Source: a virus
Taxonomy: Duplodnaviria > Heunggongvirae > Uroviricota > Caudoviricetes
Virus record (IMG/VR): IMGVR_UViG_2574180238_000002
Length of the DNA stretch: 25,422 bases
Reading direction: 5' to 3' (one strand)
In this document: piece by piece, positions 1-17,492 of the stretch
How the letters are laid out: the number at the start of each line of letters is the position of its first letter
How positions within the stretch are numbered: position 1 is the stretch's first letter
Made by a program: the position numbers and the translations under genes
Notes under the pieces: model-generated
What the model saw: the letters and a program-made list of their open reading frames with translations, nothing else
Told to the model about the DNA's origin: nothing
Databases searched by the model: none

Positions 1-276
1 GTGGCTTCTGTTTCTATCAGCTGTCCCTCCTGTTCAGCTACTGACGGGGTGGTGCGTAACGGCAAAAGCACCGCCGGACATCAGCGCTATCTCTGCTCTC
101 ACTGCCGTAAAACATGGCAACTGCAGTTCACTTACACCGCTTCTCAACCCGGTACGCACCAGAAAATCATTGATATGGCCATGAATGGCGTTGGATGCCG
201 GGCAACCGCCCGCATTATGGGCGTTGGCCTCAACACGATTTTCCGCCATTTAAAAAACTCAGGCCGCAGTCGGTAA
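1..276 (+). CDS. insA: IS1 InsA (GTG start)
   Basis: 91 aa [37 protein letters not shown]..., the canonical IS1 InsA; zinc-finger CxxC...CxxC. Confidence 0.9.
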
Positions 277-698
277 CCTCGCGCATACAGCCGGGCAGTG
301 ACGTCATCGTCTGCGCGGAAATGGACGAACAGTGGGGATACGTCGGGGCTAAATCGCGCCAGCGCTGGCTGTTTTACGCGTATGACAGGCTCCGGAAGAC
401 GGTTGTTGCGCACGTATTCGGTGAACGCACTATGGCGACGCTGGGGCGTCTTATGAGCCTGCTGTCACCCTTTGACGTGGTGATATGGATGACGGATGGC
501 TGGCCGCTGTATGAATCCCGCCTGAAGGGAAAGCTGCACGTAATCAGCAAGCGATATACGCAGCGAATTGAGCGGCATAACCTGAATCTGAGGCAGCACC
601 TGGCACGGCTGGGACGGAAGTCGCTGTCGTTCTCAAAATCGGTGGAGCTGCATGACAAAGTCATCGGGCATTATCTGAACATAAAACACTATCAATAA
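195..698 (+). CDS. insB: IS1 InsB reading frame (expressed as InsAB' by -1 frameshift)
   Basis: 167-aa ORF ...[36 protein letters not shown]... typical of IS1 InsB; overlaps insA in the -1 frame at the A6C motif. Confidence 0.85.
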
Positions 699-708
699 GT
701 TGGAGTCA

Positions 709-1485
709 TTACCATATCTGGCATGCGGTTTCGTTAAGAGGAACTCCGATCGCATTGCCAGCTTTTGTTTCATCAGGGTGTATCCATGCCATTTTCTTAT
801 CCAGATCGACCTGTGACCACTCAAGGTCTGTAACGTTGGAACGGCGAAGGCCTGTCGTGATTGCAAACATGACCACAGGGAAGAAGTGAGGAGCAATTTC
901 TGCAAACAGGCGCTTCGATTCCTCCTCTGTAAGCCATCTGATGCGTCCATTCTTAACGCGTGGTGTTGATATTTTGGGTGCCCTGTCAAGCCATCCCCAT
1001 TCAACAGCCATATTGAGAATGGCGCGAAGTATTGCCAGATGCCTCGTCTTCGTTCCTTTGCTTGCAAGCTTTGGTTTATACTCCGGCACCGGATTGCCAA
1101 GTCGCAAACACCTGTCCCGGCTCATCTCCCAGTTCAGGCGATGGCGGCGGTTTTCCATCCCATCTACCGCCTCCATTATTTTTTCTGTTGTTATGTCAGA
1201 GAGAATGGCTTCTCTGAAGTGCAACATCCAGAACGATATAATGCTCTTGTCATCATCAATGGACTTCTTATCCGATTTCTCACGCAGCCACCGTATGCAG
1301 GCTTCCTTGAATAGCTTTTTCGGTGATTCCCCGAGATTTTTTACTCTCCACGCTTCTGCTTTCAGACGATCGTGAAGTTCTTGCGCTTGCCTTTTGTCCG
1401 ATGTTTCAAGAGAGCGTCTAACTCTTGATCCATCTGGCGCGACGAAATCGCAGTGCCACGTGCCACCGCGTAGTTTGATTGACAT
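709..1485 (-). pseudogene. int: P22-family tyrosine integrase, C-terminally truncated by IS1
   Basis: 258 aa; N-terminal and core-binding region resemble lambdoid/P22-type Int (DKRQAQELHDRLKAEAWR...TGLRRSN). ORF stops inside the IS1 terminus at 709-713, so the catalytic H-x-x-R and Tyr region is missing. Strong RBS AGGAGG upstream of ATG at 1485. Confidence 0.8.
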
Positions 1486-1709
1486 GCTTTAACCTCCTGC
1501 ACATCAACCGCATTCACCGCGCTATTGTGTCTCACAGACTTAAGCGCCGCAATGCAGTCTGACTTGCAAATGCGATATGGGCTTTTAGGTTTATCTGGAT
1601 TTATCTTTGCGGCCTGAAGTCGTCCACTTCGTATCCACTGCGTGATAGTGCCTTTGTCTACCTTCAGATACGACGCTGCCTCTTCACGAGTGAAGATTTC
1701 TTCTTCCAC
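1362..1709 (-). CDS. xis: excisionase-like DNA-binding protein
   Basis: 115 aa directly upstream of and overlapping int on the same strand; GTG start with GGAG RBS; position and size fit a P22-type Xis. Confidence 0.6.
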   Translation of the reverse strand: MEEEIFTREEAASYLKVDKGTITQWIRSGRLQAAKINPDKPKSPYRICKSDCIAALKSVRHNSAVNAVDVQEVKACQSNYAVARGTAISSRQMDQELDALLKHRTKGKRKNFTIV

Positions 1710-1799
1710 CTGGAATCTCCATTTATTGGATTGGTATTATTGCGGTAGGTCTGGATATCATTGAGCAATGAACAGGCCTCATCGAGTATGAGGCTGTGG

Positions 1800-2144
1800 T
1801 TAGTCCTTGCGTAACTCGCTAATTCTTCTGTAAGTCTCTGGTGCTTTGTTTCCGTGTATCTTCATTTCAGACTTCAACAGATCAACGAGGGAATCCCATT
1901 CGTTGAGGATTCCTTTGAATGCCGGAACGCGCTTTGCAACCTTGTCGAATGAATCTCTGATTTCTGGAATCTGCTCAACAAGTGCAACGCATCGTCGGAA
2001 ATCTGCTGCGTCATGTGGAGCGCCGAAGTGATGACCATAGATATTCTTTTTCAGTCCACATGCGATTGAGGCAAGAGTTGCGCTACTGATGCCGACATCG
2101 CCAGTCGATTGCCATTTCAAAACCTTCATAGCCAAATCTGACAT
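1800..2144 (-). CDS. hypothetical prophage early protein
   Basis: ORF with GGAG RBS 7 nt upstream of ATG at 2144 (internal Met of the 123-aa track ORF). Confidence 0.5.
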   Translation of the reverse strand: MSDLAMKVLKWQSTGDVGISSATLASIACGLKKNIYGHHFGAPHDAADFRRCVALVEQIPEIRDSFDKVAKRVPAFKGILNEWDSLVDLLKSEMKIHGNKAPETYRRISELRKD

Positions 2145-2155
2145 TTCTTGTCTCC

Positions 2156-2180
2156 AATAAAAAACCGCCATCAGGCGGCT
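2156..2180 (-). terminator. rho-independent terminator (minus strand)
   Basis: Stem ccgcc/ggcgg with 5-nt loop followed on the minus strand by a T-run (A-run 2155-2164 on plus strand). Confidence 0.4.
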
Positions 2181-2244
2181 TGGTGTTCTTTCAGTTCTTC
2201 AATTCGAATATTGGTTACATTGTTTTCATATATGAATAAATAAA

Positions 2245-2424
2245 TTAGCTTTTTTCGTTGCCTTCGCGTTCTTTATTAATTTTGACAAAATCGTTTTTAC
2301 CACGCTCTCCAAATGCGTCTTTAGAGTCGTTGTATCCGCAATCGCAGCACACATAATCATCAGACCATCCACGCATTGTTTTTTCTTTTGCAATATTTCC
2401 AGAACCGCATTTTGGACAAGACAT
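2245..2424 (-). CDS. small zinc-ribbon protein
   Basis: 59 aa from ATG at 2424 with GGAGG RBS; MSCPKCGSG...CCDCG has two Cys pairs typical of a zinc ribbon. Confidence 0.5.
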   Translation of the reverse strand: MSCPKCGSGNIAKEKTMRGWSDDYVCCDCGYNDSKDAFGERGKNDFVKINKEREGNEKS

Positions 2425-2520
2425 ATCACTACCTCCAAAGCATGAGAGAGATGACAACGTAACATTGATTGGAGATTAACAATAGATTGCTGATGTAAAA
2501 GATATGTATAAGCTTCGCTT

Positions 2521-3240
2521 TCAAAGTGGAGGCTCTGGTAGCGGCATCCAGTGAGTTACGTCATCCAAGATATTTCCTGATAAATACGTGAAAGCTCTAT
2601 ATTTTTTGTAATCAATTGGATTTACAACCCAGTTCCAATATGCGGCCACGATTTCACCTTGACTAAATGCCAGTAACATTTTGGTGTCTTCCGGCATTCG
2701 ATCACTACAGCTTATCCAACCATCCGGAGTTACCGGAGATTTGCCATTTACATCGAAGTTTGGCTCTGCGTCCTGAACCAGGAGGATGTAACCATTCTTG
2801 GCAGTATCAAGTTCTGACGCCTCGGTGACGGTGCCGAAATAGCGATTACCTAAATCAGCATCACAAGTACTTACATCAATGGAAACTTCCATGCCTTCGA
2901 TTAATTCTGGCAAGTTGTAAGCTTGGCTTACAGGTTCGGCTTCCAGTTCTGCAATGCGCTTTTTTGCTGTTTCCAGCTCGCCCAGCAGCGCCAAGACGGT
3001 AGCCGGATTGGCTGCAGCGATGAATTCAGCATTGGCCTGCTGTTCCATTTGGAAATCTTCATCGAAACCGCTTTCAGAATGCGCTCCTTCAATTCTGCAA
3101 ATGGGAATATATCCAGCAGCCTCGCGATGAATTAGCGCATCATCACCATCAAATCGGCTCTCTCCATATTCGAGCGACCACTCACCACACGTTGCTTTTT
3201 CTGCCGCCTCACGCAGTGCCTGATAGTTAATTTCGCTCAC
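2521..3240 (-). CDS. prophage early protein with DUF551-like C-terminus
   Basis: 239 aa; GTG start with AGGAGG RBS; C-terminal ...WISCSDRMPED...HWMPLPEPP resembles the DUF551 motif common in lambdoid early-left regions. Domain assignment from memory. Confidence 0.55.
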   Translation of the reverse strand: MSEINYQALREAAEKATCGEWSLEYGESRFDGDDALIHREAAGYIPICRIEGAHSESGFDEDFQMEQQANAEFIAAANPATVLALLGELETAKKRIAELEAEPVSQAYNLPELIEGMEVSIDVSTCDADLGNRYFGTVTEASELDTAKNGYILLVQDAEPNFDVNGKSPVTPDGWISCSDRMPEDTKMLLAFSQGEIVAAYWNWVVNPIDYKKYRAFTYLSGNILDDVTHWMPLPEPPL

Positions 3241-3788
3241 TGGTTGCCTCCTTTGCGAAGCTCTGCAGCGAAATATACAGCTGCGGAAACAATAGCTGCA
3301 TGTCGGTATTCACCATCAGAAAATAAAGAATCTCCCTTAAGTGCATTGACGATACTCTGATGATTTTTTGCCAGCATCTCCACGCCCTGCGCCCGTACTT
3401 CAGCCAGAAAAGCATCGGTGGCTGGCATATTTCCTGTTGCCTTCATGGCCTCCAAAATAACCAGAACGCCATCTCGCCCAACCACCTCAGCGATAACCTC
3501 GGTGTTGTCGCCAACAACATCGCAGAATGCCTGAACTGCCTTACGAGCCAGCTCATTCTCCGCCGCAAGCGCCGAAAACTTCTCGTGTGCCAACTTAACA
3601 ACTGCATCAGCCTGCTTAATTGACTCAATCGCTCTCTGCTGGTCTTCGGACAGAGCCGAAATCTTGGCCTCCGCTTCAGCAAATTTACGCACCAGATATT
3701 CAGCGTTTGTTTCGTTAACCTTTAAATCTCGTGGGATGCATTTACCTTTCAGAAATCCATCCATCTCAATTAGTGACATTTGTTTCAT
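3237..3788 (-). CDS. hypothetical prophage protein
   Basis: ORF with GGAG RBS 9 nt upstream of ATG at 3788; GTGA start/stop overlap with the downstream gene suggests translational coupling. Confidence 0.5.
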
Positions 3789-3945
3789 TTCTTCCCACTC
3801 CGCCACATCGCATTCAGATATTTGTTGTCATTAACAGAACCGAAACTCTTTCTCTTAAGCAATTCCTCTCTCGATGGCATTGGCTTTACGCGTTGGCGAA
3901 TAATCATTTCTGCCGGAAGAATGCCGGGATTGTATGCAAGTCCTC

Positions 3946-4236
3946 TCATGATTTACTCTCCACGAACTGGTCAATAGCCATGCTAAGTGACATACCTAAA
4001 GTTTCGATATGCTGCTGAATATCCTGTAGCGTCTGCGCCTGAGATAACAGGATTTCACGGTTACATAACTCTTTAACCAGATGCTCAAACTTGCTGTAAT
4101 AACCGATACGGCTTAGTGTTTCTTTCCCTGCATTCTCACCTTCTTTGATAATTCCTCTTTCGCTAAGAATCAGGTCGTGTTTGGTTCCGGTAATAACGTA
4201 TTTTCCGAGGTCGATGTTCAGCTTCATTGTTTTCAT
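3946..4236 (-). CDS. hypothetical prophage protein
   Basis: 96 aa from ATG at 4236 ([12 protein letters not shown]...) with AGGAA RBS. Confidence 0.45.
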
Positions 4237-4246
4237 TGTTAATTCC

Positions 4247-4540
4247 TCAGTCATTACTGATAGCGCCATAGCGTGAGCGGTAATTACGCAGGCGCGGGTC
4301 AATTTCAGGGAAGTGGGTATATGTGGCTTTGCGGAATGGTCGGATTGATGTCTGGTAAATTCGCTCGCGTTCTTCTTTCTCTGCGAGCCATATACAATGG
4401 CGAAATTCCTTTTCCTCTTTCGTTTCCTGCGGTAGCGACATTATCCGGTCGTAGTTTTTTCTGAATTTATCCAGCACCTCCGATACGGAATTGCCGGAAC
4501 AGCGGCGCGGGTCATCCGCACTATACAGAGGCGCTGGCAT
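4247..4540 (-). CDS. hypothetical protein (uncertain)
   Basis: 97-aa ORF, charged composition, no clear SD; sits at the presumed deletion junction just upstream of the gp20-like gene. Confidence 0.3.
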   Translation of the reverse strand: MPAPLYSADDPRRCSGNSVSEVLDKFRKNYDRIMSLPQETKEEKEFRHCIWLAEKEERERIYQTSIRPFRKATYTHFPEIDPRLRNYRSRYGAISND

Positions 4541-4586
4541 TGGTGCTGGTATCGGATTGCTTGGCTCGTTGTTTTAAGGGGTAATC

Positions 4587-5993
4587 ATGGCTACTTGGCA
4601 AGGAACAAACGGCGGATTGTTGGCTGGTATCGGCGGCGTCAACTCAAACGCTCCGAGCGTAAATGACATCGGCAATACGCTTCAGCTTATCAGGCAGAAC
4701 AATGATATTGAGCGTTCAGGCGCTAACAATGTTGGACTGACGGCCTTGCAAGGTCTTTCAGGTATTGCGGGTGTTTTTCAGCAGGAAAAGCAGGCTCAGC
4801 GGCAGAAAGAATTTCAGCAGGCATACGCTAATGCTTATGCGTCTGGTGATCGCGGTGCTTTGCGTCAGTTGGCTACTCAATATCCAGACCAGATTGAATC
4901 CGTTCGTAAAGGCATGGGATTCATTGATGAAGACCAGCGTAATTCTATCGGTACATTAGCGGCTGGGGGGGGGGGTGGGGCATCGTCTCCAGAAGCAATG
5001 CAATCATGGCTGCAAAATAACGCCAAGGAACTGACTCGCGTCGGTGTTGACCCTAATAACGTTGCTCAGATGTATCAGCAGAATCCTTCAGGATTTGGTG
5101 AGTTTGTTGATCACCTTGGAATGGCTGCTCTTGGTCCGATTGATTACTTCAATGTTCAGGACAAGATGGCTGGTCGTGAGATTGATCGCGGAAAACTTGC
5201 AGAGACAATCCGCAGCAATCAGGCTGGTGAAGCACTTCAGGCGAGAGGGCAAAACCTTTCCTATCAGTCAGCAATGACTGGGCACAATATCGCAGCACAA
5301 CGCTTGGCCCTGGATCAGCAAGAGTTCGGGTTTAAGATGCAGCAAGCGCAGGAAAAGGCTCAGCAGTTGATTAGCGAAGCACCTAAGCTGTCAGTAAACA
5401 TGGAAAAAGGCATCGAGACGGCTGTAAACAATGCCACAGCATCATCAAACTCAGCCAATTCCATGAGTGCGCTTGCTCAACAGTTCAGAGCAGAAAAACC
5501 AACGACAGGTTTGTTCGGTAACGCACAGAACATGTTCGCAAAACTTACCGGAAGCGATACGACATTGCGTGATTTGCGCATTCGCCAAAATGCCCTTGTT
5601 AACAGTCAGGTTCTTAAATTCCTACCTCCCGGCCCAGCAACGGATAAAGACGTTGAGATCGTTCGACAGGGTGCGCCAACTGACATGGATAACCCTGAGA
5701 CGGTCGCAAGATGGCTTGATGCAATGGCAAACCTTGAGCGACGAAACGCGCAGTTTAATGAGTTTAAAGCTGAGTGGATGAGCGCGAATGGCAACCCTGG
5801 ACAATCGCGTAATGGCGGTCAGATATTGGGGTTGGATGTTAAAAAAGGTGAATCATTGGGGAGTGCCGTTAAGCGGTATATGTCATTGAATACTGACGCA
5901 GCGCCAGCACAAGATTCGATACCTTCAGGAGAACCACGGAATCAGGTTGGATCATATACCTCAAAATCAGGCATTCAATTTACGGTGGAATGA
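4587..5993 (+). CDS. P22 gp20-like ejection (DNA transfer) protein
   Basis: 468 aa with AAGGGG RBS. Size and position (before a ~610-aa protein, followed by an Mnt-like gene and tailspike) match the gp20-gp16 pair of P22-like phages. Assigned by synteny and size, not sequence recall. Confidence 0.7.
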
Positions 5994-7837
5994 TGAAAGT
6001 AACTGCAAACGGTAAGACATTTACCTTCCCTGATGGTACGAGCACGGAAGATATTGGATCTGCCATTGATGAGTATTTTGCTGGACAGTCTGTTCAGCAA
6101 CAAACTGTCAGCCAGGATAGCAATGAACCAGCACGTGAAGAACCATCATTGATGCAACAAGCTGGCGATTGGCTCACTGGTGGTCAAAGTGCAGGGCAAA
6201 TTGCTGAACAGGCTGGTCGTGGTCTGGTAAACATACCATTTGACGTATTGCAGGGTGGTGCAAGTCTGATTAATGCAATCAGCCAGGGGCTTGGTGGCCC
6301 AAAGGTTTTGGATGATGTTTATCGTCCAGTAGATCGACCAACAGACCCTTATGCGCAAGCTGGAGAAACAATTGGCGGGTATTTAGTTCCAGGAGCTGGA
6401 ACGGCAGGAAGCATGGCTATTGGATCACTGGCAGAGGCCGCAAATCAGAAAGGCGATTTCGCACAAAATGCAGCCAAAAATGCCGGAGTTAACCTTGCCG
6501 CTCAGGGTGTTCTTTCCGCAGCAGCAAAGGGAATAGAGCGTGGAATAACGGCTATAAAAGGTGATATTGCGCCAGAAGTGGCGAAGAAAATTGCCACATC
6601 AGAATCGATGGGCGTGACACCAATGACATCTGATGTTATCCCGCCGAAAAATGCTTTCACTCGTGGCCTTACTCAGGATGCCGAGGGTGCTTTGCTCGGG
6701 ACAGGCTCAAAGCGAGCGGAGCAATATGCAACGCGTAGTAAACTGGTAAGCAATTATTTTGACCGTTTTGGTGAGTATAACCCTGATGATGTGGTGAAAT
6801 CTCTGACCACCACGTTAAGGGGGAGGAAGGATGCCGCTGGCGCTGTTATCAATGACGTCACCAATAAAATGGGTAATGCCGCAGTTGATACCACAAATAC
6901 CATGAATGCTCTGAATACAGCGATCGCAAGACAGGAACGGCTTGGGACGTCTGCCAATCAAAGCCTGCTTACATCCTTGCGTAACCTACGTGAAGAATTA
7001 GCAAACCCTGCAACTGATTTGGATGTTACGTTTGATCTCTTGCGTCAGCACAGAACAGCATTTAGATCTAATGTTCAGGGAGATGCTATGGTCTTCCCCA
7101 ACCAGGCAAAAGCAGCTACCAATATGGTAGAGAATGCAATGTCAAAAGACCTTCGTAACGCAGTTGCTAAAAACCTCGGTGCATCAGACGCAGCAAAATA
7201 CCTTAAAGCAAATTCCGATTATGCAAACGTTTATAATAAGGTGCTTAATAAAAACATTGCTAACAAGCTCAACAAGGCAAGCAGTGAAGCCAGTCCTGAA
7301 CTTATAAATACCGTTGTATTAAGCAGAAAACCATCTGACGTGAAACGAATCTGGAGCGCACTGGATGATAAAGGGAAAGATGCTATGCGTGCAGCTTACG
7401 TCAGCAAAATAGCGGAAAAGGCCGGTGACTCTCCAGCCAAGTTCATCACTGAAGTTAATAAGCTGAAATCTCAGTCAGGCGGTGAAATTTACAACACTAT
7501 TTTTTCTGGAAAGCACATGAAAGAGCTTGATGCTCTTCATGAAGTTCTACAGCAAACAGCAAGGTCAGACACCGCAAATGTAGTAACTCAGACGGGGCAA
7601 TCGCAAGCCAACAGGATAAGGACGATTGGCGCAACTGCGACCCTTGGCGTATCAATGGGGCTTGAGGCTGGTTTTGGTGCAATGATGCGCTTGTATGAGT
7701 CCAAAGCAGCAAGGAATGCTCTCTTACGCCTGGCAAACACTAAAACTGGAACGCCAGCTTATGAAAGAGCGCTAAATAATGCTGCAAATGCGATACGCCC
7801 TATACTTTCAAGCCAAATTACAGCAGAACAGCAATAA
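5990..7837 (+). CDS. P22 gp16-like ejection (DNA transfer) protein
   Basis: 615 aa; ATGA overlap with the upstream gene; size matches P22 gp16 (~609 aa); synteny with mnt-like gene and tailspike. Confidence 0.7.
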
Positions 7838-7851
7838 AAGATAAGATATAA

Positions 7852-8337
7852 CTACCTGATATTACTGCTACTGTTGCATGTTACCGTGTTTCCAAATCCT
7901 GAATTGCAGTTTGTATATGTGTCAACGCGTGTTGGGTAAGGTTGAGTTATAACAGGCTGGCGCGCTTTTTGCTCGATCGCTTGCATTGTGTTTACAGCCT
8001 GATAATTCAATAAAGCCTGCTGGAATGCTTGGCTTTGCGCTATTTGTTGGGCTTGCTCTTGGCTTTGTAATTGAACATAAAGATTTTGAAGCTCAAGTCT
8101 TGCCTGTGCGTCACTTATCTTACCTTCATCAACACCTTGCCCGAGCATCTTTGCGGCAAGGACATACAGCTTAGGTGTTGGTGCAGACGCCATGCGTGAG
8201 TCGTTCTTCACACTGGCATCAAGGCAATTAGCCATATCGCTAAGCTTTTGATAGCGTTGTTCGCAACTTGCTTGATAGTCACTTACTTTTGCGCATCCAA
8301 CCAGAAGAAGCGGGATAATTAACAGTGATTTTTTCAT
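7852..8337 (-). CDS. lipoprotein in the sieA-equivalent position
   Basis: ATG at 8337 with AAGGAG RBS; MKKSLLIIPLLLVGC is a signal peptide with lipobox; Gln-rich C-terminal half. Confidence 0.6.
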   Translation of the reverse strand: MKKSLLIIPLLLVGCAKVSDYQASCEQRYQKLSDMANCLDASVKNDSRMASAPTPKLYVLAAKMLGQGVDEGKISDAQARLELQNLYVQLQSQEQAQQIAQSQAFQQALLNYQAVNTMQAIEQKARQPVITQPYPTRVDTYTNCNSGFGNTVTCNSSSNIR

Positions 8338-8407
8338 ATGGTTAACTCTCCTTAGTTTTTCACAGGATATCATGAAGGCAATGCCATTTTAGCCGGAAAC
8401 TAGATTT

Positions 8408-8674
8408 CTATGTTTCCTTTTTATTATTGCTATACATGGTCTTAAGCGTTTCAAAAACCATTTTCTTAACCATATCAGATTGTTGTTCTGCCATACGCTC
8501 TGCATCGTCAATGTAAACTGATGCAGAGCTTTGTTTAGCCAATGATTCTTCAATCGCTGCAATTATCTCTGAGTTCAGCGACCTGTTATTCATCTTCGCG
8601 CGCTGTTTAATTTTCGCGTGGAGTTCATGCGGAAGTCTCAAGTGAAACTGCGCCTCGTCGTATTTGCTGTACAT
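8408..8674 (-). CDS. mnt: Mnt-like ribbon-helix-helix repressor
   Basis: 88 aa from ATG at 8674; aligns by eye with remembered P22 Mnt (..NGRS.NSE...DAER.A..QS..VKKMVF.TLK..Y). Confidence 0.7.
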   Translation of the reverse strand: MYSKYDEAQFHLRLPHELHAKIKQRAKMNNRSLNSEIIAAIEESLAKQSSASVYIDDAERMAEQQSDMVKKMVFETLKTMYSNNKKET

Positions 8675-8795
8675 CCTTGATGCCTCACCAGTTGGGTGGA
8701 ATGGCATCGTAACCTACTGGATAAATACTCAATAGTACCATTTCTGTATGCAATCACATCATGGTTGCATCATATCATTCGTCTGGAGCAATGAA

Positions 8796-10613
8796 ATGTC
8801 AGATATCACCGCAAATGTTGTGGTAAGCATGCCTTCTCAACTCTTCACTATGGCTCGTTCTTTTAAAGCTGTAGCCAATGGCAAAATTTATATCGGTAAA
8901 ATTGACACTGACCCGGTAAATCCTGAAAACCAGATTCAGGTTTATGTGGAGAACGAAGACGGCTCTCACGTTCCTGTATCGCAGCCAATCATCATTAACG
9001 CTGCCGGATATCCTGTATATAACGGACAGATTGCCAAATTCGTAACTGTGCAAGGCCATTCTATGGCTGTTTATGATGCATATGGGGCGCAGCAGTTCTA
9101 TTTTCCTAATGCGTTGAAGTGTTCCCCTGACCAGGGAATTATCAGGTTAAAAGAAGAAATTGCGAAAGATGATGGAGAGAAATATATCGGAATATGCCCT
9201 GACGTTTCTACACTCAGAACAATTGAGCCATCATTCGTCGGGCAAAATATAACTGTTCGTGGATACTACTCTGACACACCCGGGCTTGGGGGAGGAACGT
9301 TTATAGCCTTTTCCAGTTCTGAAGCTGACGATGGTGTGAATATTTTTGTTACCCCTGGCGGTAAGCGATGGAAGAGAGCAGGAAGCCACATCGATATTCC
9401 GGTAGAGAACGGTGGCATGATGACATCATGTACGGCTGAGCAAAACAGTGAAGCCTTTGAACGCCTGACTGCATGCCTTCCATATGAAGGAGGTACGCTC
9501 AGACTCAATGGATTTTACGGTATTAAGTATGGCGCTATCGTGCCTCCACGTGTCACGCTGGAGGGGTGCGGTATGGATTCCTGTGGATTAATTAAAACAG
9601 GTAACGATATTAAAACCGTTCCGGATCGCATGTGGCAGGGTGTACCACACAGCTTCTCCAAAGACTTTATTGTTGCGGTAGATATGGATAGTGACACATC
9701 AGGTGATTTAAGCGGGACACAAACAAGAAGCACCAGAATAATTGGATTGAGTATTCTAAATACTGCGCCCAATCCTTGTGATTACGGGATATATAGCGCT
9801 ATCAGTTACAATGTGCGCCTTCAGGACCTGTATATTCATAGGGTGAAAACCGGTTATCGCACTAGTGATAGTTGGTTGCAGACATGGGAAAACATTACTA
9901 TTCAGGATGTCGTTACTGGAGTTAAAATCGAAGCAGGTGGAACCACATATAATTTAAACAATATTTATGTGAAAACATGTTCAGGTGTTGCATATGATTT
10001 TAATAACATTACATATAGCAGCCTGACTTGTTTGGCTGCTGACTTCGTTAATGGTACTGGCTATAAATTTAAAGATTGTACTGGAGTGAATCTATCTGGA
10101 TGCGGAAGCGAAGAAGGCACTGGTAAAATATTTGATATAAATGGTAGTCGAATTAACGTAACTGCATTTAGAGGGGTTAATCATCATGATGGAGGAGTTG
10201 AAGCTGTATCTCTGGAATCGTGTTTCATCTCATTGGTTTCATCTCATTTTTCTAGTTACTCTGGAGTCTCATCTAGCAAATACATATATCTTAATAATGC
10301 AACTGCAAATTTTAATGGTACGGTAATTCCCGACAACACCACTGATTCTATTAGATGGGGTAGTGCGCAGAGCAGGATCAACAAGGTTGATTCAGGCGGC
10401 ACCTATAGTATAACCGGAAACTCATCATGGACTGCATTATGCAGACTTGAGTCAGGATATATAACGGTTCTATCAGTATCACCACCCACGGGAGATACAA
10501 CTAATTTCCCGTTTGGCACCAAGTGGGAATTGCTTGGTCAGGTTTATACCGGACCGTGGAAGTGGACATACGTATCAACTGGTGAATGGAAGGTATCCGC
10601 AACTACCACGTAA
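8796..10613 (+). CDS. tailspike with P22-type head-binding N-terminus and divergent receptor-binding domain
   Basis: [11 protein letters not shown]...[35 protein letters not shown]...[11 protein letters not shown] matches the remembered P22 gp9 N-terminal ~110 aa; the rest does not resemble P22 gp9. GGAG RBS. Confidence 0.85.
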
Positions 10614-10640
10614 AAAAAAGGGGCTTTCAGCCCCTTTTTA
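10612..10640. terminator. bidirectional rho-independent terminator
   Basis: aaaaaaaa-ggggct-ttc-agcccc-ttttta: perfect 6-bp GC-rich stem flanked by A-run and T-run, between convergent tailspike and acyltransferase genes. Confidence 0.65.
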
Positions 10641-10641
10641 T

Positions 10642-11685
10642 CTAATATCTGAATTTGTTTGATATCTTTTTCCCAATATCCATTGCTGGTTTTTCTATCG
10701 CAATAAATGATATCAGTCCAGCAATAAGTGATAGTGCTATGCATAAAACTTGATTTAAGTACAGGTTTATATCAGGTAATAACCTGAATGTTATCTGCTG
10801 TATTAAAAAGCCCCACAAGTAAACGCCATATGACACATCATGTTTTATTCTTACTGATTTTATTATTTTTGTTGTTGATAAATACACGAAAAATGTACAT
10901 GCGCAAAAGTAAAAAAGCATATGCTTGAGTGTTGGGTCTGACACAAAATTATATAATATTGCAAATCCTATTGGTGCATGTGGTGAAATGTATATTTTGT
11001 CCTTGTTTATAGCATACAATGCGCCAAGAGCAAAGCATGGAGCCATTAAAAACACATCTGCATTATCGTTATTTATAAAAATTAATTTGTTCCATCCCAA
11101 TACTGGAAGCGCTATTATTGATAAGCATATGATGCTAGGTATTATTCTTCCTCTGCTCTGAGTTATCATGTAGCATGCTAGGAGCACGACATAAGATGCA
11201 ACTTCATATGGTATTGTCCATAAGGAACCATTAACTGATCTTTTATATATATTTTCCTCAAAAACACCAGGAAGAAAAAATTGCATATCCAAATATGAGC
11301 TTTTAAATAGATAGCTGTACGTCAGTGTATCTTTTAAATAAGATGTCATTGAGTGCGTTGTAAGTAATGGTCCAACAATGAATGTCGCGAATAATAAAAC
11401 AAAAATGAATGCGGGGAATATTCTAAAAAATCTAGATGAAATAAAGTGTGGTATGTTGCGCGTTGTTAATAAACTATTAGTTACAAGCATTCCACTAATA
11501 AAGAAAAATATTTTTACAGCAATGGAACCAGTATATGTAAATGTGAAAACAGACTGAACCGGCTCCTGGGCTCCATCAGAATTTGCAAGATAATATGAAT
11601 GGGCAAATATTACAGAAATTGCACAAAAAATACGTATTAAGTCAAGGTTATTGTTATCCCTTTTTAGCGCATCTTTGACCAACAT
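10642..11685 (-). CDS. integral-membrane acyltransferase family 3 protein (O-antigen acetyltransferase-like)
   Basis: 347 aa from first ATG; multiple hydrophobic segments; N-terminal motif ...LDLIRIFCAISVIFAHS typical of acyltransferase-3/Oac-type enzymes; visibly AT-rich; sits where P22-like phages carry O-antigen conversion genes. Confidence 0.7.
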   Translation of the reverse strand: MLVKDALKRDNNNLDLIRIFCAISVIFAHSYYLANSDGAQEPVQSVFTFTYTGSIAVKIFFFISGMLVTNSLLTTRNIPHFISSRFFRIFPAFIFVLLFATFIVGPLLTTHSMTSYLKDTLTYSYLFKSSYLDMQFFLPGVFEENIYKRSVNGSLWTIPYEVASYVVLLACYMITQSRGRIIPSIICLSIIALPVLGWNKLIFINNDNADVFLMAPCFALGALYAINKDKIYISPHAPIGFAILYNFVSDPTLKHMLFYFCACTFFVYLSTTKIIKSVRIKHDVSYGVYLWGFLIQQITFRLLPDINLYLNQVLCIALSLIAGLISFIAIEKPAMDIGKKISNKFRY

Positions 11686-12075
11686 AAAAATCACCTAACT
11701 GTTTATTTTGAAGAGCATTGTATCATCAGATAGCCGCACTTTCACTCCCATCAGATCACCGTCAGAAATTATCATAAGCGCCAGTTCATCATGTGCAATT
11801 GCGTGCAAACAAAATATTCACTGCAGAGAGATTAAGTAGATTGATTCTACTGGGTTGGCATGAGACAAAACTGAGACACAGAAAGCTTTGCACTGGATTG
11901 CAAGGCTTTGTGCTCTCCTGTGGATGTGTGTCTACATGTTTGAAGATTGTTGTGCCGTATTTGTGACATACGCATGACAACATCATGCATCAACTTTCTG
12001 TTTGTGCCATCAACTATAGCTTAGTGAATGCGGTTAATGCTTGCTAAAACAGATAGTTATGATTGGTGCTACAGA

Positions 12076-12121
12076 TTCGTAATGCGAAGGTCGTAGGTTC
12101 GACTCCTATTATCGGCACCAT
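12076..12121 (+). other. partial tRNA-Thr 3' segment (anticodon loop to CCA): central att site of the tandem array
   Basis: ATTCGTAATGCGAAGGTCGTAGGTTCGACTCCTATTATCGGCACCA matches the 3' 46 nt of tRNA-Thr(CGU) as remembered; upstream bases do not form the tRNA 5' half, so this is not an intact gene. Confidence 0.7.
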
Positions 12122-12726
12122 CAAGAAAATCAATAACTTAGCTTAACTTCTCTAAGAAATTGTATCTTCTGTTATCACTTACAAACGCCTATACGTTGTT
12201 ATGGGCTTTGGTAGTGTAACACGTATGGGCGAGTAGTTCCCAGGCTCAACCTCGTAACAAGTTCCTTTGAAGCTGGAAGACGTGCCACCGTCTCTAAACC
12301 TTCTACCAAAACTCTTAGCAAGATGTTCCACACCTGGCGCGGTGTCCAATGATGCTACACGTCGTGAGACGTTGCAGAGGATAAACAGGCTAAATGATGG
12401 GAAGAGTTTTAAGTGCAATAGTGGATCAAAGCCCACCTCTTCAAAACCTAACTTGATCGGGAAAGAATCAAGCTCTAGCACGGTTTCGTCCACCGGAGTA
12501 CAACGGGTGCCTGATAAGAGAAGAACTGCTAAGACTTCATAGCTTTTGTGAAAAAGCCCTTTTTAGTGGATACGCCTACGGCGCTTATTTTTTGGTATAA
12601 CCATCAAAGGCGCTTTATGGCTCCTATTGTCTTGAAAATGTATCTTTACTTGTATTGTGTTTTATGCGTAGTCTCCCTGTGTAGTATGTAACTTGTTAAT
12701 TTTCATATGAATACAGAGGCAACACG

Positions 12727-12879
12727 ATGAAAAACATTGCAGCTATAAAACGTAATAACCGCAAGATTCACGCTCGTAAGTTCCTGTCTACGCCAGAAGG
12801 AAAAGCCTGGCTAGAGCGTAAACAGAGAGAGAACGAAGAAAGAAAACTCCTTAGTGAGTTGAAATGGCTTAAGGATTGA
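12727..12879 (+). CDS. small basic protein (50 aa), uncertain
   Basis: MKNIAAIKRNNRKIHARKFLSTPEGKAWLERKQRENEERKLLSELKWLKD; not in the ORF track (below its length cutoff); followed by a long hairpin. Confidence 0.3.
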   Translation: MKNIAAIKRNNRKIHARKFLSTPEGKAWLERKQRENEERKLLSELKWLKD

Positions 12880-13429
12880 ATCACCAGTAGGCGCATAACA
12901 CATCCAGCGATCAAAGATGTGTTTATGCGCCTGATAGTGAAATTATTAAAGTTTTTTAGTTAATGTAGCCATTGCATGAACGATGATCGCTAGTGAATCG
13001 ATTTTATCTCGAGGGGTAAAATAGATGAGGTATATGATGGTAACAATTACAGCTAAAGTAATTGTGGTTCTGCAGGTTTTTAAAATGGATAAGATAAAGC
13101 GCATAGATACCCCCTATTGATTTAACAACAATAAGGTATCATTTATTTTTTATTGCATGCAATGTGCAAATTTTCACATATAATAGCTTACTATTCACTT
13201 TGCATGGTGTCAACAAGATGATGTGTTGTTTTGTTTGATTTGTTCAAGATAATATTTCATTTTCTCATCTATATAACTTGTGTTTTAGATAATTTCACTA
13301 ATTGTAAAAGTTACGTATTGCTTAATAGCTGCCTTTTTATCTGAAATCGGCGCAAACGTGATCAATGTTTAACGCGAAGATCAGCGGCGTCAGGTCCACG
13401 CAGCGACAATTCTCAAATATCAGGAGGCA

Positions 13430-13981
13430 TTACGCTTCCTGCTCTTTCTTGATACGTTGCACCGTCTGTGTGCTGACACTGAAATCTTTTGCTACGCTCC
13501 GAATTGATCCACCATTCGCGAGAGCGGCAACAATTCCCGCTCGATCAATTGCTTTTCCATTACCACGTTTTGCTATACGTCCAGCGGCCTTAGCTGCGGC
13601 GATCCCCTCACGTTGCCGCTCAAGCATCATTTCACGTTCCATTTGTGCCACTGCTGCAAGCACTGTGAGCATCATATTCCCTGCGGGAGAGTTCTTCCCT
13701 GTCTTAAAGTCTTCTTTATGGAAATGCACAGACACGCCGCGCTCTGTTAATTGCTCAACCGTTGCCAGAAGGTCGGCTGTATTACGGCAAAGGCGATCAA
13801 TACTGTGAACATGCACAACATCACCTTCCCGCACATAGTTCATCATTGCCTCAAACTGTGGGCGCTGAGTGTTCTTGCCTGACGCTTTATCTTCAAAGAC
13901 TTTATCAAGAGTTACTCCAGCTAATTGACGGTCTGTGTTTTGTTGCACAGTCGATACCCTAATGTATCCAATATTAGCCAT
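13430..13981 (-). CDS. serine recombinase (resolvase/invertase family)
   Basis: MANIGYIRVSTVQQ... with the catalytic Ser context, DRL.R motif and C-terminal HTH (GGSIRSVAKDFSVSTQTVQRIKK); ~183 aa, typical of small resolvases/invertases; RBS 9 nt upstream of ATG at 13981. Confidence 0.8.
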   Translation of the reverse strand: MANIGYIRVSTVQQNTDRQLAGVTLDKVFEDKASGKNTQRPQFEAMMNYVREGDVVHVHSIDRLCRNTADLLATVEQLTERGVSVHFHKEDFKTGKNSPAGNMMLTVLAAVAQMEREMMLERQREGIAAAKAAGRIAKRGNGKAIDRAGIVAALANGGSIRSVAKDFSVSTQTVQRIKKEQEA

Positions 13982-14507
13982 TTTCATTTTCCTTCTGTGT
14001 TGATTTGTGTGTAGTGATTATTGATCGTGTTGATTAGGTGTGTAAAGGACTTTTTTCACTACGAAATTCGAAGGTTTTTAGTGTGGTGATTTAGCCTGCT
14101 TTATCACTACACGTCTTGCATGAGAATCATGTAGTTACATTTTGGTAAAATTAGCAAGCTATTAAATAGTGTGTTTATTTTGAAAAAATAATTTTTTGTT
14201 GCATTAAAGGAAACTTGTTCGACAAATAATAGATTGATTTTTAATCAACAATTTCTGATAGTGCTCTGTAAGCCGTATTACACAAGGCTTTGCGAAAGTG
14301 ATGTAAAAGTGAAGAAAGCTAACATTGCACTTTTTAAGCTACTTTTCATTGGATTTTTACGTAGGAATTACACAGGGATTAATCATCAATTACATTGAAT
14401 TTAAGCCTGTTTTAGATGTTTAATTTTGGTAGCAAGAAACACTTTTAGAAGATCATTGCACAGATGTTATGTGATAAATGGATGTAACGGTAGGTCACTG
14501 TGAACTA

Positions 14508-14644
14508 CCCCCACAGAATTCTGTTATCCTTAACTTTTAAAGAAATATGCACCCTAACAGAAAACTGTTACCCCAACCCTAACAGAATTATGTTAGATAC
14601 CCCCACAGAAAACTGTTAGCCACCCCTACAGAATTTTGTTACCT
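14508..14644. repeat. array of five ~23-bp iterons, each a TAACAG-N4-CTGTTA palindrome preceded by a C-run
   Basis: Cores at 14513-14526, 14557-14570, 14582-14595, 14605-14618, 14628-14641; four of the five start 23 bp apart. Confidence 0.65.
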
Positions 14645-14756
14645 ATTAGATCAACTATCAAACTACAATTAAATTATCTTTTATAAATTCTTTTATCTTT
14701 AAAGAATAATTAAGTGATACCCGTTAGGGAGTCTTCGACTATCCCTTAATCTATTG

Positions 14757-15033
14757 GCATTCGCCAGAACCTTGCACAAGTTAGAGTGTTAGTCGTTAGA
14801 CTGCTTGTCATAACACATAGTTTTTGTTTGTTGATGTTAGTTAGTAGATCTATGTTCGCTAATGCCGCTCACAACGAATATGTAATCTACTATGTGCAAA
14901 TAGCCTACGGCTTGCGTAAGGCTAAATAGTCTATGCGCTGTGCGCTTCAATAGTTCCATTGATGAGGCTTACGCCAATCTAACGATCATCAATCATCTAA
15001 AATAAATTTCTTGTGCAATGTTCTGGCGAATGC
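14757..15033. repeat. 24-bp inverted-repeat pair flanking a 229-bp segment
   Basis: gcattcgccagaaccttgcacaag (14757-14780) versus reverse complement of cttgtgcaatgttctggcgaatgc (15010-15033): 23/24 identity. Confidence 0.55.
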
Positions 15034-15339
15034 AATTAGAGTAGCGTTACCCCTTTGGGGATGCTAACGCATAACTATAGATCAACCATCAAACAGACAA
15101 AAAAGAAAAATATGGTTTAAAGATGTTAGGTAGTAGATGAGATTCTACCGCTTAAATCAAGCCGTAGGCGAGCTAAACAGCCTCTACATAAGGGAATGTA
15201 TTGTATTTATCAAAACCTCGTCAGAGGGCGTTTTAGAGCGTTTTAGAGAATAAGGAAGAATAGGAGCACTCTTAAGAGCACGAATTGCTAAGAAAAATTA
15301 TAACACACTGAAAATGATCAATATTTTTATGGCTAGGGG

Positions 15340-15368
15340 TTGACAAAAGCTTTTAGTCGTGGTAAAGT
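15340..15368 (+). promoter_or_regulatory. candidate sigma70 promoter for the 15492-17800 operon
   Basis: TTGACA (15340-15345), 17-bp spacer, TAAAGT (15363-15368). Confidence 0.4.
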
Positions 15369-15491
15369 AATATTAGGGACAGAAAACATTCTTATCCTCT
15401 AAGTAATTAAACCAATGCACCGCACTTTGAAGCCCAACAAGGCTTGCAAGGTGTTTTTTCTTTTAACCAAATAGAATAAGGAGGCTAATTA

Positions 15492-15668
15492 ATGAAATAT
15501 TTTACTCCACAGGATGTAGTTGAAGCCTGGAAACGTGGTGAGATTAATCGTTTTAAAGTAAGGATGAACAGGAACACAGCGCGACGCTGTGGTTATCCAG
15601 AGCGTGAAAAATGCTTTGACGATGCACTAAAAATTATTGATGAACTGCGTAAGGCAGAGAAAGAATAA
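15492..15668 (+). CDS. small protein (58 aa), unknown function
   Basis: Strong SD AAGGAGG upstream of ATG; MKYFTPQDVVEAWKRGEINRFKV...; first gene of a co-directional operon. Confidence 0.5.
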   Translation: MKYFTPQDVVEAWKRGEINRFKVRMNRNTARRCGYPEREKCFDDALKIIDELRKAEKE

Positions 15669-15689
15669 TAACAGGAGAAGGAGAAAACT

Positions 15690-15860
15690 ATGAGCGAAAC
15701 TACAGAAAAGAAAAGACAACCACGCACTTGCTTTCATATTCCTGATGAAGTATTTCAGGTGTTGTTTAAAGAAGCCAGAAGTAAACGTATCACTGTTACA
15801 GATTACATTCTTGATATGTTGAAAAGAGAGGCTGAAACACTCTCAAACAAAAGCAAGTGA
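15690..15860 (+). CDS. small ribbon-helix-helix-like DNA-binding protein (56 aa)
   Basis: SD AGGAGAAGGAG; sequence RTCFHIPDEVFQVLFKEARSKRITVTDYILDMLKRE fits a beta-strand then two helices as in CopG/Arc/ParG-type RHH proteins (by-eye secondary-structure pattern). Confidence 0.5.
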   Translation: MSETTEKKRQPRTCFHIPDEVFQVLFKEARSKRITVTDYILDMLKREAETLSNKSK

Positions 15861-15913
15861 TTTTTATCACCATAGTAGCGCCGTAGAGCGTGATTACATC
15901 AAGGAGATTTTTA

Positions 15914-16483
15914 ATGATTAATGAAGAACAATTTGTAAAAGTTCCTATGTGGATTCTAAAAATAAGCCAAGTAAACGGACATAAATTTACAGATAGTGCT
16001 AAAAACCTTTACTGCTATCTGAGAGGGTTTGATCGTGCATTTCCCTCTTACGCTAAGATAGGCGATGTTTTTGGCATAACACCAAGAGCAGCAGAAGAAA
16101 GGGTTAAGAAATTGCTCGAAATGGGATTAATTATAAAAGATGCACGACCAGGAAGCTCTAACCTTTATCGAGTGCTTGATATTCCAAAAGGAGAATCATC
16201 ACTACCTGATCCTTCTGAGAAAGAAGACGAATCTAATGAAATATTGAATGTTTCCGAAATCATCGTTGAAGAAGAAACACAAGAGCCAGAGTTCCCTGAG
16301 CGGCCCGAAATTTTTACTTGGCTTCTTTCCCTTGATAAGAAGAAACCACCGCACGAAGAAACAGAAGATTTTGTAAAACGAGCATTAGATTCAAAGAATA
16401 TCTATCTTTGTGAAAATGATTTTGACTCTTTGATAATTGATCTCAAAAGTGAGAGCACAATATATGATTCACTACCCTTCTAA
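15914..16483 (+). CDS. predicted winged-helix DNA-binding protein with acidic C-terminal tail
   Basis: ATG at 15914 with AAGGAG RBS; N-terminal ~90 aa has a wHTH-like pattern (..AKIGDVFGITPRAAEERVKKLLEMGLI..); C-terminal half highly acidic. Confidence 0.55.
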   Translation: MINEEQFVKVPMWILKISQVNGHKFTDSAKNLYCYLRGFDRAFPSYAKIGDVFGITPRAAEERVKKLLEMGLIIKDARPGSSNLYRVLDIPKGESSLPDPSEKEDESNEILNVSEIIVEEETQEPEFPERPEIFTWLLSLDKKKPPHEETEDFVKRALDSKNIYLCENDFDSLIIDLKSESTIYDSLPF

Positions 16484-16492
16484 GGAGAATAA

Positions 16493-16750
16493 ATGACTTA
16501 TAACATCACTATAGGAAACAAAACTATTGAAATAACTGAAAGCGGATACAACATTTTAAAAGCTATTTTGGACATAGAGTTTTCACCACCGACAGTGGTT
16601 AGCTTTTGTAGTTTAGGCGGCTACAGCGCACAACACGTAAATCATTTTACATCGTTCGGTGTGCTGGATTATGAAGGGATTAACAGCACTACATTTCGTC
16701 TTTTGAAATTAAACAAAGATTTTGAATTGTTTCTCACAAACAATCAATAA
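16493..16750 (+). CDS. hypothetical protein (85 aa)
   Basis: AAGGAG RBS; same-strand operon context. Confidence 0.5.
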   Translation: MTYNITIGNKTIEITESGYNILKAILDIEFSPPTVVSFCSLGGYSAQHVNHFTSFGVLDYEGINSTTFRLLKLNKDFELFLTNNQ

Positions 16751-16847
16751 CAACAGATCGGGCAATACATATGGCAAATGCATTTATGGCGATATTCATC
16801 GTAACAATGGCGTCCAGTTTTTATAATCCACATAAAAAGAGGGAAAA

Positions 16848-17231
16848 ATGGGAAGAAAGAAAAAGAACAACTTAAAACGTATTGAAAAAAACAGTAATTT
16901 CAATTCAAAAAGACAACGTCCACCGACACACACCAATAACGAAATTCCAGGGGAAGAGATAATCTTTATTCTTGAAACAGAATCCCCTGAATTAAGTGAT
17001 GAAGAATTAGAAATAATCCAATCAATGCCAGGCGTTTACTTTCGCCCAAGAACAAGAAAACAAACTATCATTTCTGATGGCACTCTGAAACGTTGGCAGC
17101 TTTTAGGGTTTAGCTCCTATCATCATTTTTTGGGATTTAACGCTTTCAATAATTGTGTAGGTGGTGCATCGGAAGTCGATCTGATGGCTCATTTAGAAGA
17201 TACATTAGCTTCTAACAAACGTTCTAACTAA
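16848..17231 (+). CDS. hypothetical protein with basic N-terminus and acidic middle (127 aa)
   Basis: RBS AGAGGG; N-terminal Lys/Arg-rich stretch followed by an acidic segment. Confidence 0.5.
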   Translation: MGRKKKNNLKRIEKNSNFNSKRQRPPTHTNNEIPGEEIIFILETESPELSDEELEIIQSMPGVYFRPRTRKQTIISDGTLKRWQLLGFSSYHHFLGFNAFNNCVGGASEVDLMAHLEDTLASNKRSN

Positions 17232-17246
17232 TAAAATGATGGGTGT

Positions 17247-17492
17247 ATGTATAAGCGCCCAATGAAAATATTCAAAAAAGGAAAAATAATGATTGGCTAT
17301 ATTCAAGAAACACAATTATTTCAGATGATCCTGTCTGATGCAAAAAACTATGCAGAGTTAATTCGGCTGGCAAAAGAAACAGAAGACTACGAAGCATTAG
17401 AGCGTTACCGTGATGAAGTGCTGACGCTCAAGACACCTTTTAACATCGTATTGAATATGATTAATGATGCATTACAAGGAGAATACGCATAA
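17247..17492 (+). CDS. hypothetical protein (81 aa; alternative start at 17289)
   Basis: ORF with better RBS (AAGGA) before the internal Met at 17289; stop overlaps the next start (ATAATG). Confidence 0.45.
   Translation: MYKRPMKIFKKGKIMIGYIQETQLFQMILSDAKNYAELIRLAKETEDYEALERYRDEVLTLKTPFNIVLNMINDALQGEYA

Follow-up and report, generated by a model that had tools for sequence, protein, structure and literature searches.

A defective P22-like prophage at thrW in Escherichia coli, probably left by a recent central deletion

The stretch of DNA considered here (the window; 25,422 nucleotides, IMG/VR record IMGVR_UViG_2574180238_000002) corresponds to the first 25.4 kb, counted from base 56, of JJLY01000008.1, a contig in the Escherichia coli assembly GCA_000627945.1. 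Phage-derived DNA spans positions 714 to 12121 and represents a P22-like prophage at the transfer RNA (tRNA) gene thrW, of which only the left arm and the right arm are present (Table 1). The element derives from a P22-like (Lederbergvirus-type) phage but is no longer one, its head and packaging genes being gone; with replication, lysis and morphogenesis functions lost, it is a defective (cryptic) prophage.

Gene content of the two arms

The left arm retains int, xis, six small ea genes and abc2, all on the minus strand, and the right arm retains genes for gp20, gp16, a lipoprotein, Mnt, a tailspike and an acyltransferase, followed by attR. These assignments, made with Pfam, PHROGs and gene calls, recovered every element listed in an earlier note on this DNA that had been written from the letters alone. 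All retained genes except int match the length of their homologues in the nearest relatives. The 468-, 615- and 605-residue open reading frames (ORFs) and the acyltransferase gene, which the earlier note had called uninterrupted, are indeed full-length, the second of them encoding 614 amino acids (615 when read from the ATG at 5990). The adjacency of gp20 and then gp16 that is typical of P22-like phages is present (PF16928 Inj_translocase, PF26808 Phage_P22_gp16, phrog_770), and the prophage order int-xis-ea-abc2...gp7-gp20-gp16-immI-tailspike-conversion gene-attR is retained, with attR and its thrW tRNA core in the window; attL and an intact thrW were seen only in the sister lineage GCA_017054835.1. 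An Rfam scan of the window gave no matches and ARAGORN found no complete tRNAs in it.

Absence of the remaining phage genes was examined by a tblastn search of all 25.4 kb of the window, with 39 proteins from Huey, a complete P22-like phage, as queries. Matches were limited to gp20, gp16, the tailspike N-terminus, the ea genes, DUF2737 and abc2. None was obtained for terminase, portal, scaffold, coat, gp4, gp10, gp26 or gp14, for Erf, Kil, N, repressor, Cro, cII, replication, nin or Q, or for holin, endolysin or Rz, which bears out the statement that head, lysis, replication and immunity-C genes are missing. On the Huey map the missing arc comprises about 27.3 kb and runs from upstream of abc2, through the early, immunity, replication, nin, Q, lysis and head regions, to the end of gp7.

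Table 1. Features of the window, with coordinates, strand and the basis of each assignment (aa, amino acids)
Feature	Coordinates	Strand	Basis
IS1	1-713	+	DDE_Tnp_IS1 in gene calls; right end ...GTTGGAGTCATTACC at 713
int, thrW-type (SfX/CP4-6-type), IS1-truncated	714-1485	-	codons 1-256 of 386 left
xis (excisionase), 115 aa, full length	1362-1709	-	Pfam HTH_17; 115/115 aa vs mEp213 excisionase
ea gene, 114-aa protein	1800-2144	-	gene calls; Pfam/PHROGs
ea gene, Lar-like zinc ribbon, 59 aa	2245-2424	-	GenBank draft calls; Pfam and PHROG support
ea gene, Ead/Ea22+DUF551	2521-3240	-	Pfam/PHROGs/gene calls
ea gene, 183-aa protein	3237-3788	-	Pfam/PHROGs/gene calls
ea gene, DUF2737	3785-3949	-	Pfam/PHROGs/gene calls
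ea gene, DUF5405	3946-4236	-	Pfam/PHROGs/gene calls
abc2 (anti-RecBCD protein 2)	4247-4540	-	Pfam Anti-RecBCD_p2 1-97/97, E=4.6e-63
Deletion junction	4530-4540		11-bp microhomology GGCGCTGGCAT common to abc2 start region and gp7 3' end
gp7 remnant	4541-4577	+	last 12 codons and stop; alignment to O26 prophage gp7/gp20 region
gp20-type ejection protein, 468 aa	4587-5993	+	Pfam Inj_translocase; 468/468 aa vs O26
gp16-type ejection protein, 614 aa	5993-7837	+	phrog_770 'DNA transfer protein' E=4e-279; PF26808 Phage_P22_gp16
Predicted lipoprotein, 161 aa, MKKSLLIIPLLLVGC...	7852-8337	-	phrog_6067 full length; lipobox read from translation
Mnt/Arc-family repressor, 88 aa	8408-8674	-	Pfam Arc and Repressor_Mnt
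Tailspike, 605 aa	8796-10613	+	Pfam Head_binding PF09008, 1-113/113, E=7.8e-65
Acyl_transf_3 membrane acyltransferase, 347 aa	10642-11685	-	PF01757 residues 15-327; phrog_3333 'O-acetyltransferase'
attR core (3' 46-47 nt of thrW)	12075-12121	+	alignment with EC195 thrW and mEp213 attP
Island serine resolvase	13430-13987		
Island Dit_like 'baseplate' protein	22689-23366		
Island tyrosine integrase	23447-24724		

The phage DNA is bounded on the left by the insertion sequence (IS) IS1, which is complete (768 bp) in the source contig; this contig starts (GGTGATGCTGCCAACTTACTGAT) 55 bp before the window, at the left inverted repeat of IS1. Neither attL nor thrW lies in the window. The IS1 stretch accounts for the thousands of matches of the window to E. 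coli chromosomes and plasmids. The earlier note had described a prophage reduced to its two ends; both arms and nothing else are present, but position 714 is the IS1 junction inside int and not the left end of the element. The truncated int frame reads a few bases into IS1 and stops at 709, its alignment to mEp213 int covers 256 of 386 amino acids, and only positions 2-77 of the 172 in the Pfam Phage_integrase profile are matched. Because the IS1 cut has removed most of the catalytic domain, excision of the remnant by its own integrase is predicted to be impossible in this strain. Within the ea genes, a 79-residue ORF annotated in phage Huey (2226-2465; 96% identity by tblastn) overlaps the frame of the 59-residue zinc-ribbon protein, and the latter alone is backed by Pfam and PHROGs.

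The nearest relative of the right arm is an intact-looking P22-like prophage in assembly GCA_024753645.1, which lies next to ybhB and bioA and carries genes for terminase, portal, scaffold, coat, gp4, gp10, needle, gp14, gp7, gp20, gp16, lipoprotein, Mnt, tailspike and acyltransferase. A gp16 protein identical to that of the window is carried by intact-looking prophages. The lipoprotein gene occupies the position of sieA in P22; it aligns with O26 over 161 of 161 amino acids, with one nonsynonymous difference, and its product has no Pfam or PADLOC match. PADLOC likewise returned no defense-system matches for the ea genes, abc2 or the acyltransferase. Mnt is the sole immI regulator present, arc and ant being missing. 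An inverted repeat, ATGCAATCA-N5-TGGTTGCAT, is found at 8748-8770 in the mnt-tailspike intergenic region and, given that there is no arc or ant, may be a Mnt-type operator overlapping a promoter into the tailspike gene.

The tailspike combines a P22-type head-binding domain with a divergent receptor-binding domain. Its matches to structures in the PDB (Sf6 gp14 and the P22 tailspike) are confined to the N-terminal ~148 residues, and it aligns over all 605 amino acids with the tailspike of another E. coli P22-like remnant, VE-T9. The start of the receptor-binding region (9184-9692) has ~73% DNA identity to a gene for a tail protein in Salmonella phage STML-13-1 (~157 kb) and its relatives, a similarity that would indicate exchange of a receptor-binding module across phage types. 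Where the head-binding domain meets the receptor-binding domain, five substitutions fall within 13 bp (9112-9124, tailspike codons 106-110) when the remnant lineage is compared with the GCA_024753645.1 prophage (L026), L030 and VE-T9. This cluster at a known module boundary looks like a recombination scar and not like point mutation.

The acyltransferase gene has a G+C content of ~34% and sits between the tailspike gene and attR, the place taken by oac or gtrABC in other P22-like phages; the same arrangement is found in the GCA_024753645.1 prophage and in VE-T9. Against Sf6 Oac the protein shows 27% identity across 94% of its length (E=2e-15 to 6e-15), its best phage matches are acyltransferases of Burkholderia and Halomonas phages, and no NCBIfam model matches it. 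A role in O-antigen modification is predicted from family and position. To the right of this gene, the phage P arm (11863-12074) precedes the thrW-derived core and the right flank is the DNA found 3' of thrW in other strains, so the alignments identify a proper attR.

The deletion junction and its carriers

The start codons of abc2 (4540) and gp20 (4587) lie 46 bp apart, in line with the earlier observation that the early-left genes abut the gp20-like gene within about 50 bp. The abc2 coding sequence is complete, the DNA upstream of its ATG is deleted, and the start codon is fused to the final 12 codons of gp7, 3' of which gp20 keeps its own spacer and ribosome-binding site. The gp7 gene had been reported as absent; most of it is indeed gone, but these last codons and the stop survive. 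In a three-way alignment of the window with the abc2 side of mEp213 and the gp7/gp20 side of the O26:H11 prophage, homology switches inside the 11-bp microhomology, a sequence found once per reference locus and at the expected place, and the alignment to the GCA_024753645.1 prophage starts exactly at 4530. Breakpoint mapping against P22-like relatives, as the earlier note had proposed, placed a single junction at this point, and no IS element is associated with it. The homology switch within an 11-bp repeat, combined with the missing ~27.3-kb arc, thus indicates a single microhomology-mediated (illegitimate) deletion, of which a clean join of this kind is the signature. An alternative origin of the left and right arms from two tandem prophages was considered and set aside as superfluous, since one thrW-type module is matched by both the int side and the P arm of attR and the arms are joined by a microhomology deletion.

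Three GenBank assemblies, the work of at least two projects, carry the junction, as does a Logan assembly made independently from SRR1186755; it is reproduced in JJMA, DADILZ and the Logan assembly. GCA_000627905.1 (JJMA) has the same truncated int and the same junction, and across 21 kb just two single-base differences separate it from the window, both derived: tailspike K24* (AAA to TAA, 8865) and gp16 Y130D (6380). In GCA_017054835.1 one contig runs crl-phoE-proB-proA-thrW-int-ea-abc2|gp20-gp16-lipoprotein-mnt into the tailspike gene, and it agrees with window positions 714-10250 at every base except eight. Its int is intact (386 amino acids) and free of IS1, which indicates that the deletion is older than the IS1 insertion. 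This contig ends at window position 10250, and a Logan contig of SRR11347957 shows an IS5 terminus, checked against annotated IS5, adjoining the CTAG at 10250-10253; the tailspike gene of GCA_017054835.1 is thus interrupted by IS5.

The eight exceptional bases belong to a poly-G patch, GGGGGGGGGGGTGGGG, at 4967-4978 in gp20 of the window, which stands base for base in place of a sequence coding for GARLAA. The Logan assembly of SRR1186755, GCA_000627905.1, GCA_017054835.1 and all relatives have a GARLAA- or GARLAS-coding sequence here, and by this comparison the patch is a consensus artefact of the JJLY draft and not biology. Such an artefact, in a short-read draft whose contig is broken at IS1, raises the question of whether abc2 and gp20 were mis-joined or whether the missing genes lie elsewhere after IS-mediated rearrangement of an intact prophage, the more so as the gene search covered the window whereas the source contig runs ~36 kb further and the genome has other contigs. 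We regard either explanation as very improbable. The junction is identical in all of the assemblies named above, the 11-bp repeat would be too short to cause an assembler mis-join, and the GCA_017054835.1 contig passes without a break from the chromosomal flank across the junction. The join itself involves no IS element, the window holds no central phage genes, and it ends in a chromosomal LysR-fragment gene, which other strains carry ahead of the pao genes.

All carriers of the remnant belong to one very narrow clade. None of 5,426 complete E. coli genomes contains the junction, which also has no exact matches in Genome Taxonomy Database (GTDB) species representatives or Joint Genome Institute (JGI) metagenome contigs, and the exact Ead protein of the left arm is present in the three remnant assemblies only. 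The suggestion that the same remnant might be conserved across strains therefore holds for three near-identical assemblies but not outside this clade.

Age of the deletion and fate of the surviving genes

Comparison with the GCA_024753645.1 prophage bears directly on the age of the deletion. Window positions 4530-11916 align with it gaplessly at 99.7% BLAST identity, or 99.8% without the eight artefact bases. The first 4,582 bp of this alignment (4530-9111) contain no real differences, such that gp20, gp16, the lipoprotein gene and mnt are base for base (artefact bases aside) those of a prophage with its virion genes. The 14 differences lie in 9112-11916, all of them in the tailspike receptor domain, the acyltransferase gene or the spacer beyond, and the match stops at 11916, giving way to the thrW-type P arm. 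This uneven spread points to a mosaic phage history or to tailspike-specific evolution in phages, rather than to clock-like change after the deletion. Since gp20, gp16, the lipoprotein gene and mnt show no real differences from a prophage that keeps its virion genes, their uninterrupted state reflects youth. A recent deletion, one of the two possibilities raised in the earlier note, is supported by this identity together with the clean 11-bp join and the confinement to one narrow clade. We consider it highly probable that the element is an ordinary dead prophage in an E. coli chromosome whose ORFs are intact since the damage is recent.

The other possibility raised was selective retention, whereby the host keeps gp20, gp16, the lipoprotein, the tailspike and the acyltransferase as useful, possibly for O-antigen remodeling, exclusion of related phages or as a recombination reservoir for incoming phages. 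Domestication of this kind could explain why gp20/gp16 through tailspike, along with an O-antigen-modification gene where present, survives in several independent E. coli remnants with differing breakpoints, and why every carrier has an identical, intact acyltransferase; retention of the acetylase in the O104:H4 remnant has also been remarked on (Scholl et al., PMC3303846). For the tailspike, however, the idea is not supported: of the three carrier assemblies, one has the gene broken by IS5 and another by K24*. A missense change is also present in gp16 of one carrier. The proposed comparison of nonsynonymous and synonymous substitution rates (dN/dS) gave low values of 0.03-0.37 against the nearest relatives but is uninformative on retention; low dN/dS was rejected as evidence because a dS of 0.01-0.13 shows that this divergence predates the deletion and was built up in live phages. 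Purifying selection after the deletion is not seen: the tailspike is broken in two carriers, gp16 has Y130D in one, and zero substitutions over 4.6 kb relative to an intact-looking prophage leave no time for selection to become measurable.

Two-ended architecture itself needs no selection because both ends survive any single internal deletion. Moreover, three comparison remnants came from queries that favor this architecture (a junction-spanning query for E100341, a whole-remnant query for PSS-11), the late promoter and antiterminator are gone, and instead of the broad conservation in an old clade expected of a domesticated module, the remnant occurs in one narrow clade. Overall, we judge domestication of the retained block to be unlikely. 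Selective retention of the acyltransferase is possible, as is that of the sieA-position lipoprotein. It is quite improbable that the gp16-tailspike block, or the acyltransferase with the tailspike, constitutes a host-selected receptor-editing/phage-exclusion module or recombination reservoir of which this remnant would be a very young example.

In the history proposed here, which is consistent with recent deletion, the ancestor would have been a P22-like (Lederbergvirus-type) phage, temperate and with an int/att module specific for thrW. It would have integrated there, on the upstream side of a 13-kb island already resident at thrW. Two 11-bp direct repeats, one at the abc2 start codon and the other 37 nucleotides before the end of gp7, would then have been the endpoints of a single RecA-independent deletion of ~27 kb. 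Lost with this DNA would be the genes for recombination, kil, immunity (immC), replication, nin, Q, lysis, terminase and head, along with most of the tail-accessory genes. By our reasoning from lambdoid biology, a deletion that removes the repressor is survivable only if the kil, replication and lysis functions go too. The survivor would be unable to replicate, lyse the cell or make particles, and lineage-specific damage has followed, namely IS1 in int in this strain, IS5 in the tailspike gene in GCA_017054835.1, and tailspike K24* with gp16 Y130D in GCA_000627905.1. In this strain gp20, gp16 and the tailspike gene would be unbroken simply because there has been too little time for decay.

In P22-like phages gp20, gp16 and the tailspike gene are normally driven by the late promoter and a Q-type antiterminator (Q/gp23). 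Since both were lost with the central arc, these three genes are probably silent passengers. The acyltransferase, the sieA-position lipoprotein and Mnt, by their families and positions, are the sole genes likely to be still acting, as they are normally expressed by a repressed prophage. The acyltransferase would probably acylate O-antigen and thereby block adsorption of phages that use this receptor.

Several observations weigh against this account. The changes that distinguish the remnant lineage from the GCA_024753645.1 prophage and VE-T9 in the tailspike receptor domain and acyltransferase are all nonsynonymous, which could mean adaptive change in place of variation within the phage population. 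A scan for consensus promoters and terminators gave no more sites in the window than in shuffled sequence, and we infer the silence of gp20, gp16 and the tailspike gene from the lost regulators. The two JJMA differences may represent early decay of the remnant or draft-sequencing and assembly errors, the JJLY draft itself containing an artefact. Sequence to the left of IS1 in this strain lies outside the source contig. A look-up with the exact Ead protein found no intact parent combining this left arm with this right arm, and the genome before the deletion is reconstructed from mosaic relatives.

Directly 3' of attR lies a separate integrative island of ~12.8 kb (12122-24889), bounded by imperfect copies of the thrW 3' end at 12097-12124 and 24862-24889. 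In addition to the resolvase, Dit_like protein and integrase listed in Table 1, it encodes a series of proteins without annotation. The assembly collection lists this integrase in 2,209 blocks. In many E. coli, O104:H4 strains among them, the same island directly adjoins a thrW that is intact, so that prophage and island here form a tandem array at thrW. Five copies of a 23-nucleotide iteron-like direct repeat, ACCCnnACAGAAnnnTGTTAnCC, are found within the island at 14507-14644, which suggests a replication origin or a regulator-binding array.

This neighbor, with its iteron-like repeats, looks integrative and shows that the locus attracts mobile DNA, and the ancestral form of the remnant had intact int, xis, attL and attR. 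Both points would fit a mobilizable, satellite-like derivative, that is, a ~12-kb int-xis-att element with a tailspike that is excised and packaged by a helper P22-like phage. Pfam, PHROGs and the Huey tblastn search revealed neither replication genes nor an origin in it, and no genes for the small terminase, for capsid resizing or for helper sensing, and the P22 pac site lies in the small terminase gene. As int is also destroyed in this strain and the element is found at thrW only, in one narrow clade, we regard a satellite as exceedingly improbable.

Comparison with known phages and remnants

Relative to complete P22-like genomes (P22, Sf6, HK620, Sf101, Huey and the GCA_024753645.1 prophage), the remnant shares Pfam families and the order gp7-gp20-gp16-(sieA position)-mnt-tailspike-conversion gene-attP-int-xis-ea-abc2. 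It differs in that ~27 kb from abc2 to the end of gp7 is gone, and in having no arc or ant. The int/att module is of the thrW type, whereas the nearest relative of the right arm adjoins ybhB and bioA instead, and the acyltransferase shows only the low identity to Sf6 Oac given above.

The remnant is of modest interest for its dating, as one microhomology deletion was followed by different IS insertions in sister lineages and a near-identical relative fixes the time scale. It also carries a caution for annotation: uninterrupted ORFs in a young remnant are weak evidence of selection. The intact pair of tailspike and acyltransferase marks an O-antigen type and could serve in typing or in retargeted pyocins, as was done with the O104 tailspike (Scholl et al.). 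The remnant raises no new biological question.

Published remnants offer close parallels. The P22-like remnant of the O104:H4 strain of the 2011 German outbreak keeps a tailspike and an adjacent O-antigen acetylase (Scholl et al. 2012, PMC3303846). As in the window, much of the P22-like genome has been lost and an intact tailspike gene is followed by a gene for a presumed O-antigen acetylase; a relative of that strain, 55989, has a seemingly complete prophage (PMC3303846). The two differ in the tailspike receptor domain and in the acetylase, and in the present case an 11-bp junction is mapped and later IS1 and IS5 damage documented. Leavitt et al. (2013, PMC3741392) drew attention to a small P22 remnant (EC4113-1 type, O157:H7) that more than 100 E. 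coli genomes carry and that also surfaces in our survey as O157 needle-gp14-gp7-gp20 matches. It is likewise a fragment of several genes from the P22-like virion block fixed in a lineage, but comprises needle-proximal genes in a widespread large clone, whereas the remnant described here retains both arms in a few near-identical isolates. The oac1b-carrying remnant of Shigella flexneri, a defective IS1-flanked prophage with an O-acetyltransferase (PMC3630932), similarly retains a gene of the O-acetyltransferase type. That element is not P22-like, keeps many virion genes, lies at torT-ycmA, and has an acetyltransferase activity tied to serotype.

Five further P22-like remnants in E. coli, independently formed, were identified among the complete genomes, in PSS-11, the E100341 lineage, ETEC4073, Res13-Lact-PEA06-10 and VE-T9. 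Each has lost the replication, lysis and head core and keeps gp16 (with or without gp20) through the tailspike gene, all but VE-T9 retain int and early-left genes, and PSS-11, VE-T9 and ETEC4073 have gtr or acyltransferase genes nearby. They differ from the thrW remnant in their att sites (sbcB, argW, ybhC-bio region), breakpoints and mechanisms, and two of the five keep the immunity repressor that is lost here. In PSS-11, IS3 lies between abc2 and the needle gene; the E100341 lineage joins abc2, a partial exonuclease gene and a partial gp7; ETEC4073 joins cII to gp16; Res13-Lact-PEA06-10 joins cro to a partial gp20; and in VE-T9, whose tailspike and acyltransferase module is the same as here at 99.4% identity, IS30 adjoins gp20. 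Three of these five joins involve IS3 or IS30. P22-like virion-gene DNA was detected in 1,495 of 5,426 E. coli genomes in many states of completeness, a survey that is dominated by clones and in which coverage is confounded by mosaic divergence, and that is therefore used qualitatively only. Central deletion is thus an ordinary route of decay for such prophages, and the thrW remnant is a fresh example of a familiar, published type.

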